Part shown: positions 1,848 to 3,704 of the stretch, piece by piece | How the letters are laid out: each line of letters begins with the position of its first letter | How positions within the stretch are numbered: the stretch's first letter is position 1 | DNA from: a virus | Taxonomy: Duplodnaviria; Heunggongvirae; Uroviricota; Caudoviricetes | Strand: one strand, 5' to 3' | DNA: 4,286 bases | IMG/VR virus record: IMGVR_UViG_2609459864_000004 | Coordinates: 1-4,286 of that record | Position numbers and translations under genes: made by a program | Notes under the pieces: model-generated | Databases searched by the model: none | Told to the model about the DNA's origin: nothing | Seen by the model: only the letters and a program-made list of their open reading frames with translations

Positions 1848-3704
1848 ATGGCATTTAAACACTATGATGTTGTCAGGGCGGCGTCGCCGTCAGATCTTGC
1901 GGAAAAGCTGACACATAAACTGAAAGAGGGCTGGCAGCCGTTTGGTAGTCCGGTGGCCATAACCCCTTATACCCTGATGCAGGCGATTGCAGCAGAAGGT
2001 GATGTGGTCGTCAGTGGTGCAACTGAGCCGGAGTGGTACTACGTCATCGTACTGGCCGGGCAATCCAATGCCATGGCTTACGGTGAAGGGCTTCCGCTTC
2101 CGGATTCTTACGATGCGCCCCACCCACGCATTAAGCAACTGGCCCGTCGCAACACAGTGACTCCCGGTGGTAAAGCATGCGCATTTAACGACATCATTCC
2201 GGCAGACCACTGCCTGCATGATGTTCAGGATATGAGCGCACTGAATCATCCGAAGGCAGACCTGAGCAAAGGGCAGTACGGCTGTGTCGGCCAGGGCTTA
2301 CATATTGCCAAAAAACTGCTTCCGTATATCCCGAATAACGCGGGGATCCTGCTGGTACCATGCTGTCGTGGTGGTTCGGCATTCACCCAGGGCGCGGAGG
2401 GGACATTCAGTGCGGACACGGGGGCCAGCCAGGATTCGGCACGCTGGGGTGTGGGTAAACCGTTATATCAGGACCTGATCGCACGCACCAAAGCGGCATT
2501 ACAGAAGAACCCGAAAAATGTGTTGCTGGCGGTGTGCTGGATGCAGGGCGAATTTGACATGAGCGCTGCCACCTACGCACAGCAACCGGACCTGTTCACG
2601 GCCATGCTGAAGCAGTTCCGTACTGACCTTTCCGGATTTAACGCGCAGTGCCATGGCGGCAGTGCTGCAGTTGTACCGTGGATTTGTGGCGACACGACGT
2701 ATTACTGGAAAAACACATACGGCACACAGTATGACTCCGTCTACGGCGCGTACAAAAACAGGGAGAGCGACAACGTTTTCTTTGTGCCGTTCATGACCGA
2801 CGGTAACGGCAACAACACGCCCACCAACTTACCGGCAGAAGACCCGGATATTGCTGATGCAGGTTATTACGGCGCGCAATCCCGTAGTAATGGTAATTGG
2901 GTATCGTCAAATCGTCCGACACATTTCAGTTCATGGGCGCGCAGGGGCATTATTTCGGATCGCCTGGCAACCGCTATTCTGAACGCAGTTGGTCGAACCA
3001 GCGCCTTCATCAGCGGTACCGCACCGGAGATTAAACCCTCGCCCGGCGGCGACACGCCATCGGGGCCGTCTGATGGTGACACATCCGTTCGTACAGTCTC
3101 CCTGCTGCCGACAGCCGGAGAGGCTGCTGCGCAGGGCTGGACCATCACCGGCGGCAGTGTTGCGCTGGAAGATGGTGTGTTTAAGGTTACCAAGCAGAGC
3201 AATAAAACCTGGTCCCTGATGCATCCGGTGGATGACGCGGTCTCCCTGCTGACACGGGGTGGCAGACTGAGCTGTAAGTTTCGACTGTCAGGCGCACTGA
3301 CCAACAACCAGTTCGGTCTGGGAATTTATCTGTATACCGATGTAGCGTTACCTGACGTCGTGGCGATGACCGGGACTGGTAACCCGTTCCTGATGTCGTT
3401 CTTCACCCAGACCACAGACGGCAAACTGAATCTGATGCATCACAAGAAAGCCGGAAACACAAAGTTGGGCGAGTTCGGGAATTACAGTAACGACTGGCAG
3501 ACGCTGGAGCTGGTGTTCACCGCCGGCAGTGCCACGGTTACTCCGAAACTGAATGGAGTGGCTGGCCCGGCATTCCAGGTCATAAAAGACAGTCTGACAC
3601 TGGGGCTGAATGCGCTGACGCTGACGGATATTACCAAAAATGCAGCGTATGGCGTTGAGATAGAAAGTCTGGTGCTGGAGATAAATGCACCGGCATCATC
3701 ATAA
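1848..3704 (+). CDS. nanS-p: prophage-encoded sialate O-acetylesterase, NanS-p-like (N-terminal DUF1737, SGNH/SASA esterase core, C-terminal putative carbohydrate-binding domain); 618 aa
   Basis: ATG at 1848 has a Shine-Dalgarno-like GGTGGAAAG 5-7 nt upstream; the ORF-track start at 1833 has none. Sequence begins MAFKHYDVVRAASPSDLAEKL (DUF1737-type N-terminus), then YYVIVLAGQSNAMAYGEG with the SGNH block-I nucleophile motif GQSN (Ser codon at 2064-2066), and a WMQGEFD block typical of SASA esterases. Architecture matches the prophage NanS-p family in E. coli. Confidence 0.85.
   Translation: MAFKHYDVVRAASPSDLAEKLTHKLKEGWQPFGSPVAITPYTLMQAIAAEGDVVVSGATEPEWYYVIVLAGQSNAMAYGEGLPLPDSYDAPHPRIKQLARRNTVTPGGKACAFNDIIPADHCLHDVQDMSALNHPKADLSKGQYGCVGQGLHIAKKLLPYIPNNAGILLVPCCRGGSAFTQGAEGTFSADTGASQDSARWGVGKPLYQDLIARTKAALQKNPKNVLLAVCWMQGEFDMSAATYAQQPDLFTAMLKQFRTDLSGFNAQCHGGSAAVVPWICGDTTYYWKNTYGTQYDSVYGAYKNRESDNVFFVPFMTDGNGNNTPTNLPAEDPDIADAGYYGAQSRSNGNWVSSNRPTHFSSWARRGIISDRLATAILNAVGRTSAFISGTAPEIKPSPGGDTPSGPSDGDTSVRTVSLLPTAGEAAAQGWTITGGSVALEDGVFKVTKQSNKTWSLMHPVDDAVSLLTRGGRLSCKFRLSGALTNNQFGLGIYLYTDVALPDVVAMTGTGNPFLMSFFTQTTDGKLNLMHHKKAGNTKLGEFGNYSNDWQTLELVFTAGSATVTPKLNGVAGPAFQVIKDSLTLGLNALTLTDITKNAAYGVEIESLVLEINAPASS

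Follow-up and report, generated by a model that had tools for sequence, protein, structure and literature searches.

An intact NanS-p-type sialate O-acetylesterase gene with a lectin-like C-terminal domain in a lambdoid prophage

The 4,286-nucleotide stretch analysed here (Caudoviricetes, IMG/VR virus record IMGVR_UViG_2609459864_000004, positions 1 to 4,286; hereafter the window) carries on its plus strand a nanS-p-type gene for a three-domain sialate O-acetylesterase. A sequence-only reading, made without database searches, had called the product a NanS-p-like esterase with a C-terminal extension, and the family call holds: the protein has a SASA/SGNH core with invariant catalytic residues, and in a sequence search of the Protein Data Bank (PDB) this core matches the chromosomal 9-O-acetyl-N-acetylneuraminate esterase NanS/YjhS (3PT5, E 9e-125, query residues 59-379). 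Based on residues, folds and genomic context, we propose, with a probability of about 0.85, that the gene encodes an intact NanS-p, i.e. a sialate O-acetylesterase of a lambdoid prophage that would be expressed late, released at lysis and equipped with a lectin-like tail. The gene, its translation signal and its parts are the following, with residues numbered from ATG 1848.

1835-1843, plus strand: Shine-Dalgarno-like GGTGGAAAG, 5-8 nt upstream of ATG 1848
1848-3704, plus strand: nanS-p-type gene, three-domain sialate O-acetylesterase, 618 codons plus stop
1848-2012, plus strand: DUF1737 domain, residues 1-55 (Pfam PF08410; beta-alpha-beta-beta in the AlphaFold2 model)
2013-2033, plus strand: short linker 1, residues 56-62 (predicted local distance difference test score, pLDDT, below 50 at residues 52-61)
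2034-3002, plus strand: SASA / SGNH type II esterase core, residues 63-385 (3PT5 match; Pfam SASA)
2061-2069, plus strand: block I codons Gln72-Ser73-Asn74, with nucleophile Ser73 and oxyanion-hole Gln72 (3PT5 alignment; invariant in 44 of 44 homologues)
2922-2924, plus strand: catalytic His359 in the RPTHFSS block (3PT5 alignment; equivalent to NanS His301)
3003-3089, plus strand: linker 2, residues 386-414, rich in Pro, Gly, Ser, Thr and Asp, 64% GC (pLDDT below 50)
3090-3683, plus strand: DUF6645 lectin-like jelly-roll domain, residues 415-612, a presumed carbohydrate-binding module

The listed open reading frame (ORF) runs uninterrupted from 1833 to 3704 on the plus strand, and the version beginning at ATG 1848 encodes 618 amino acids. 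It lies far beyond chance expectation, since its translation is 100% identical to RefSeq WP_000874316.1, annotated as 'SASA family carbohydrate esterase'. The protein also matches phrog_143 over its full length, a family listed by PHROGs as 'unknown function', and no NCBIfam model matches the esterase. The start codon, earlier held to be ambiguous between 1848 and 1833, is ATG 1848, because three observations converge there. The similarity to phi24B, JLK-2012 and 2B8 starts precisely at this codon, their upstream sequences being unrelated to that of the window; the RefSeq coding sequence of a 99.9%-identical locus (NZ_AP022177, locus L001) maps exactly onto 1848-3704; and the anti-Shine-Dalgarno duplex, calculated with the 16S rRNA 3' end over the 20 nt before the start, amounts to -6.7 kcal/mol at ATG 1848 versus -0.9 at ATG 1833, in agreement with the original observation of a ribosome-binding site at the former codon only.

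The architecture comprises three domains rather than two, namely DUF1737, the NanS-type SASA/SGNH core and DUF6645, all of which exceed the Pfam thresholds. Numbered on the 623-residue version that starts at ATG 1833, DUF1737 (PF08410) spans 8-55 (E 5e-16, above the gathering score), SASA 71-267 (E 5e-13) and DUF6645 473-583 (E 2e-19). Both elements of the core-plus-tail layout described previously are thus borne out, while the N-terminal DUF1737 had been overlooked. The motifs were correctly located, with GQSN at residues 71-74 (nt 2058-2069) and WMQGE at 231-235 (nt 2538-2552), and the Gly/Thr/Ser-rich region PSPGGDTPSGPSDGDTS corresponds to residues 397-413, within the low-complexity linker 2. 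The full-length AlphaFold2 model was used for domain boundaries only, the core resting on 3PT5 homology; in this model linker 2 falls below a pLDDT of 50 at residues 384-413, as do the first 11 residues of a separate model of the C-terminal part.

According to the account of Rangarajan et al. (2011) summarised in PMC9063846, NanS operates with Ser19 and His301, without the usual catalytic Asp, and with an oxyanion hole formed by Gln18 and a Gly. A HMMER alignment to 3PT5 places Ser73, His359 and Gln72 of the window protein at the positions of NanS Ser19, His301 and Gln18. In a conservation alignment of 44 full-length homologues, reaching down to 49% identity, Q72, S73, N74, G175, Q233, G234, E235, R356 and H359 are invariant, and the four NanS-type blocks (GQSN; G; QGE; R-x-x-H) are all present in the window esterase. 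Compared with classical SGNH enzymes, Ser73, Gly175 and His359 are in place, but, as in NanS, block V lacks the Asp, and Gln72 takes the place of the block III Asn as oxyanion partner. This deviation is typical of the NanS subfamily and not a defect, and the RPTH variant of the His block is known from the NanS-p of Stx2-86 (PMC10462455).

The sequence-only reading had named substitution of the catalytic Ser, His or Asp as the mark of a pseudo-enzyme. Ser and His are unsubstituted, which favours an enzyme, and Asp is an inapt yardstick, as NanS itself operates without a catalytic Asp (PMC9063846). The pseudo-enzyme idea is ruled out because Ser73, His359 and the oxyanion-hole residues are invariant across the homologues. 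In its wider form, in which the gene is a decaying or functionless remnant of a cryptic prophage, the same idea can draw on the insertion sequence IS1 upstream in the late region (nt 1-456) and on the many database relatives that are truncated or disrupted by insertion sequences. However, the ORF is uninterrupted over its 618 codons and its product matches a RefSeq protein exactly, the catalytic residues are retained, three domains pass Pfam and the tail is confidently folded, leaving this explanation largely refuted and with next to no credence.

The AlphaFold2 model of residues 400-618, based on 32 homologues, has a mean pLDDT of 88.5 and a predicted template modelling score of 0.85. It is all-beta from approximately residue 415 (nt 3090), disorder being confined to the 11 linker residues at its start. 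In the model, the tail is hence a folded beta-sandwich behind a low-complexity linker, consistent with the beta-rich module anticipated at approximately 3050-3700, and disorder of the C-terminal region, named beforehand as an outcome that would refute the idea, is predicted for the linker only. In the PDB sequence search the tail matches 6YP6, a chain named NanS-p (E 1e-30, residues 422-614), and 6YP6 is also the top Foldseek match of the tail model (E 5e-21, template modelling score 0.85, 35% identity), followed by concanavalin-A-like lectins. The NanS-p of the Shiga toxin (Stx) phage phi24B is vb_24B_21, and 6YP6 is the structure of its C-terminal domain, which the literature treats as a lectin-like jelly roll and presumed non-catalytic carbohydrate-binding module (PMC8065619, PMC10462455). 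The extension can therefore no longer be called an unknown module, as it has a Pfam family, DUF6645, and a structure from phi24B.

Outside DUF6645, the closest fold neighbour of the tail is a sialic-acid-binding lectin domain (CBM40), the beta-sandwich fold of which it matches. Compared to the CBM40 of Vibrio cholerae sialidase (2W68 / 1W0O), the likeness is one of fold, at 14% identity and with no profile-level sequence match, and membership of CBM40 was not accepted. A tie at the sequence level to CBM40 or to other lectins was likewise rejected, with just 3PT5 and 6YP6 returned by the PDB profile search. The comparison with carbohydrate-binding modules suggested earlier thus succeeds in fold and fails in sequence. 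In 6YP6, a sugar site formed by the four aromatic residues Y510, Y515, Y540 and F611 has been proposed (PMC10462455), and alignment to phi24B identifies F489, Y494, F519 and L585 as the window counterparts. Across the 44 homologues, position 494 is Tyr in 42, F, Y or L occur at position 489 and F or Y at position 519, and position 585 is variable. A glycan-related role of the tail is suggested because of its fold, the sialic-acid-binding lectin as nearest outside neighbour and the near-invariant Tyr494 in the putative sugar site.

It is rather improbable that the C-terminal domain instead belongs to the catalytic machinery, contributing to the substrate site, folding or activity and not acting as an independent targeting module. 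Chromosomal NanS is active without such a domain (PMC9063846), core and tail are separated by a low-confidence linker of about 30 residues, the phi24B tail is cleaved off while the core persists, and tail classes are exchanged independently of core classes.

This exchange is apparent from the distribution of sequence divergence. Relative to the abundant 933W-type NanS-p (644-650 amino acids), identity amounts to 93-96% in DUF1737, 72-75% in the core, approximately 45% in linker 2 and 37-41% in the C-terminal domain, in agreement with the earlier claim that the tail is the variable part. The divergence is a mosaic and not a gradient, as some homologues pair a 35%-identical DUF1737 with an 87-96% identical core and an 83-91% identical tail. 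As judged from these comparisons, there are a few discrete sequence classes of tail, in keeping with the CTR groups of PMC10462455, and the classes would be shuffled among phages through recombination. Stx2-86, JLK-2012, H-19B, many Stx1a phages, YYZ-2008, 2B8 and phage 434 share the tail class of the window (85-93% amino acid identity over residues 417-618), and its DNA is found at a coverage of at least 80% in 1391 of 5426 complete E. coli genomes, about a quarter. The DUF6645 family as a whole is narrow, a tail search of 1.84 billion cluster representatives yielding only 59 clusters. Those inspected are all DUF6645 proteins except P0207, which has a weak malectin-domain match, and none of them provides a new partner enzyme. 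Among the distant members inspected there are three-domain esterases (P0178), fragments, proteins combining DUF1737 and DUF6645 but no esterase (P0165, P0186), and a fourth group with DUF6645 as the sole recognised domain. In P0165 (294 amino acids) and P0186 (440 amino acids), DUF1737 is joined straight to DUF6645 with no esterase in between, and P0186 contains two DUF1737-like repeats and an extra C-terminal region. Their composition suggests that the lectin domain can work alone when tethered by DUF1737.

The N-terminal domain raises the question of a capsid association. In phi24B, gp84 (vb_24B_21) is a capsid-decorating protein according to proteomics and cryo-electron microscopy, with DUF1737 hexamers occupying the central hexons of the T=9 capsid; its residues 2-57 adopt a beta-alpha-beta-beta fold, Tyr42 serves as an anchoring 'tooth', and once the phage has been released, cleavage removes the esterase and jelly-roll domains (bioRxiv 10.64898/2026.04.10.717836). 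The window DUF1737 is modelled with strands at 6-11, 29-38 and 43-50 and a helix at 14-26, i.e. one helix and three antiparallel strands, and its residues 1-33 are nearly identical to those of phi24B. By analogy, DUF1737 may additionally tether the window protein to the phage capsid. In a stronger version, which is compatible with our favoured explanation and which we entertain tentatively as doubtful but possible, the protein is mainly a virion component: DUF1737 hexamers on the capsid hexons would display esterase and lectin and hold the phage in mucus, to be shed later by proteolysis, with benefit to the lysogen being secondary. The phi24B particle, the shared predicted fold and the near-identical residues 1-33 argue for such an arrangement, and proteins such as P0165 and P0186 are expected for a design of anchor plus displayed lectin.

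However, the anchor-loop half of the domain diverges and has a 3-residue deletion, so that Tyr41, although present in the window loop, may or may not equal the phi24B Tyr42 'tooth' depending on gap placement. In addition, linker 1 falls 11 residues short of its phi24B counterpart and has no SISSP motif, and the SSP motifs with a proposed role in processing are missing. The heads differ as well. The prophage type carrying this allele (locus L001, JLK-2012) has a 645-residue HK97-like protease-capsid fusion, and tblastn in both directions detected no similarity between L001 and the phi24B head genes, while nearly the same DUF1737 (84-96% identity) is found in 434, a phage with a lambda E/D head. 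Capsid decoration is thus not simply transferable to the window phage, because the heads are unrelated to that of phi24B and the same DUF1737 occurs with a lambda-type head. We also considered whether the anchor-loop variant co-varies with capsid type and rejected this, as JLK-2012/L001 and 434 share a near-identical DUF1737 with unrelated heads; the domain does not track capsid type.

DUF1737-SASA-DUF6645 esterases are found in phages with three unrelated head modules, at 43456-45306 in phage 434 (L005; lambda E/D), at 20001-21854 in JLK-2012 (L003; HK97-like protease-capsid fusion) and at 23314-25251 in phi24B (L002; T=9 podovirus). The combination of one esterase type with three head modules fits poorly with the suggestion that DUF1737 is a mark of phi24B-like particle architectures.

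Downstream of the esterase, the following two features were identified.

3787-3824, plus strand: terminator-like hairpin with a 12-bp stem plus a T run (terminator scan), between esterase stop and holin start
3855-4070, plus strand: class II (P21-type) holin S (Pfam PF04971, E 9e-33; RefSeq annotation)

By gene order, the esterase sits at the moron position between Q and S in a lambdoid late operon, with the holin next downstream. The order in L001 is antiterminator Q, DNA methyltransferase, tRNA-Ile, tRNA-Arg, DUF3927, an IraM homologue on the other strand, esterase, holin, YdfR, lysozyme, spanins, terminase, the 645-residue capsid protein and portal, and in the window a YdfR/DUF1327 gene follows the holin and runs off the end. 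Stx phages carry stx and then nanS-p in the same moron slot (PMC10462455), whereas no stx gene is present at the window locus or in its phage type.

Combining the observed residues, folds and context, we infer the following course of events for the NanS-p encoded in the window. Following prophage induction, the esterase would be transcribed with the late genes in a Q-dependent manner and released at lysis, the latter because no signal peptide is present. Using the Ser73-His359 pair and an oxyanion hole of Gln72 and a Gly, as in chromosomal NanS, the core would remove the 9-O-acetyl group from 5-N-acetyl-9-O-acetylneuraminic acid (Neu5,9Ac2) and from O-acetylated mucin sialoglycans, an activity predicted by homology. 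A flexible linker of about 30 residues is predicted to join the core to the concanavalin-A-like jelly roll (DUF6645), which would hold the enzyme on sialylated glycans. Late expression and sialate deacetylation fit the available experimental data, as every tested NanS-p allele of EDL933 and O104:H4 was active on Neu5,9Ac2 and mucin (PMC8065619), and mitomycin C induces nanS-p by 1-2.4 log (PMC10462455).

Several points weigh against this proposal. No ligand has been demonstrated for any DUF6645 domain (PMC8065619), and the fourth residue of the putative sugar site is Leu585 rather than Phe, at a position that varies across the family. The profile from 32 homologues retrieved no CBM40 chain from the PDB at E values up to 10. 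Our literature search, covering reviews and later papers, did not confirm an assay of an enzyme with exactly this tail class, and the full-length AlphaFold2 model is weak in the core (mean pLDDT 69.8). Finally, the IS1 that ends at nt 456, inside the late transcription unit, might lower expression in the window strain.

A different target is also conceivable, with the esterase modifying receptors on bacterial surface glycans (O-acetylated O-antigen, capsule or polysialic acid) and aiding adsorption or release, as do the receptor-destroying esterases of influenza C and coronaviruses. This was raised as a possibility in PMC8065619, and the gene is phage-borne and late-expressed, its product is on the virion in phi24B, and the nearest outside fold neighbour of the tail binds sialic acid. 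We nevertheless consider it very unlikely, as experimental support was not found in the literature search, the core is 70-75% identical to alleles acting on free Neu5,9Ac2 and mucin, and the gene is a dispensable moron, absent from lambda and often disrupted by insertion sequences (PMC10462455).

The window protein was also compared with the closest known systems. The esterases of JLK-2012 and 434 are 84-96% identical to it in every domain, and relative to 434, JLK-2012, H-19B, YYZ-2008, other Stx1a phages, 2B8 and Stx2-86 the protein differences are only allelic; upstream of the gene, the window has IS1, an IraM homologue and the small RNA (sRNA) STnc100 in place of stx1 or tci genes. The phi24B / 933W NanS-p (vb_24B_21 = gp84, L0105/z1466; 6YP6) is more distant, with 60% identity in DUF1737, 70% in the core, 29% in linker 2 and 37% in the tail. 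It has RASH in block V where the window protein has RPTH, Y/Y/Y/F at the sugar-site candidates compared to F/Y/F/L, SSP motifs that the window protein lacks, and a linker 1 that is 11 residues longer, and the window gene lies in a phage type with an unrelated head module and no stx. Chromosomal E. coli NanS (YjhS, 3PT5) shares the SGNH type II core, the Ser-His pair without Asp and the oxyanion Gln (PMC9063846), but is a single-domain protein of approximately 326 amino acids without DUF1737 and lectin-like tail, encoded among chromosomal sialic-acid utilisation genes and not in a phage late operon. Should DUF1737 act as an anchor, the head would expose a glycan-binding domain as in the mucus-binding capsid decoration of the T4 Hoc type (bioRxiv 10.64898/2026.04.10.717836), albeit with different folds and with an enzyme carried in addition.

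The remaining features flank the esterase. The intergenic region 3705-3826 (plus strand) has a folding z-score of -2.5 and is 98% conserved in JLK-2012. Judged from the sequence, the hairpin at 3787-3824 probably marks where non-antiterminated transcripts, or an sRNA, end, and the region may represent a divergent sRNA or simply the nanS-p terminator. PasA/PasC sRNAs have been described between esterase and holin in other prophages; the identity of 3705-3826 as such an sRNA was not established, as the resemblance to YYZ-2008, 2B8 and 434 is limited to a 10-mer and the 3'-terminal 15 nt at the terminator.

Upstream, the 3' part of IS1 occupies 1-456 (plus strand), with an InsB-type transposase ORF at 64-441 (Pfam DDE_Tnp_IS1, E 7e-74) and the terminal inverted repeat ending at 456. 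The element lies within the late transcription unit, where it separates the phage tRNA/Q region from the esterase, and genomes without this copy match the window from nt 457 onward. A 113-residue ORF at 463-804 (plus strand) has no Pfam or NCBIfam match and is unannotated in L001. It is probably a real unannotated phage gene starting a few codons downstream, because residues 6-113 match phrog_2873 (unknown function, E 1.5e-70). A further ORF of 111 residues at 1252-1587 (minus strand) matches the NCBIfam anti-adapter IraM subfamily (NF007393, 162 bits versus a cut-off of 121) and phrog_4407. It is divergently oriented and immediately precedes the esterase, in AT-rich sequence (41% GC). As an anti-adaptor of RssB, IraM stabilises RpoS. 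Between these two ORFs, 1037-1226 (plus strand) matches the prophage sRNA STnc100 (Rfam RF02076, 132 bits, E 5e-30), and RefSeq has in a near-identical locus an opposite-strand partial 'hypothetical protein' pseudogene there (window ~1056-1181). STnc100/PasD-type sRNAs have been linked to the sequence that flanks prophage genes for sialate esterases upstream (bioRxiv 10.64898/2026.05.13.724894). In the early region of a related prophage (L001, 619-4012), an anti-phage pair iteA/iteS (ATPase and S8 peptidase) is annotated.

In conclusion, the window gene is an ordinary, intact and already catalogued member of the NanS-p family. It adds no new biology by itself, as RefSeq contains the protein, members of the family have been assayed, and structures of homologues of core and tail have been solved. 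The questions of the DUF6645 ligand and of the capsid range of DUF1737 are not specific to the window; the presence of this tail class in the tractable phage 434 would provide a convenient system for addressing tail specificity and DUF1737 on capsids other than that of phi24B. We regard as unlikely, but worth stating, a more specific idea, namely that the tail class of 434, H-19B, Stx1a phages and Stx2-86, which is approximately 36% identical to the phi24B domain, is a true sialic-acid lectin of CBM40-related fold with a glycan preference unlike that of the 933W class, and that DUF1737 might show it on siphoviral lambdoid capsids despite the unrelated heads. If so, shuffling of tail classes among prophages would tune where in mucus particles or released enzyme stay. 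For the family as a whole, NanS-p, which shares a phage locus with the Shiga toxin genes, makes the O-acetylated sialic acids of mucus usable for E. coli, pathogens and commensals alike.

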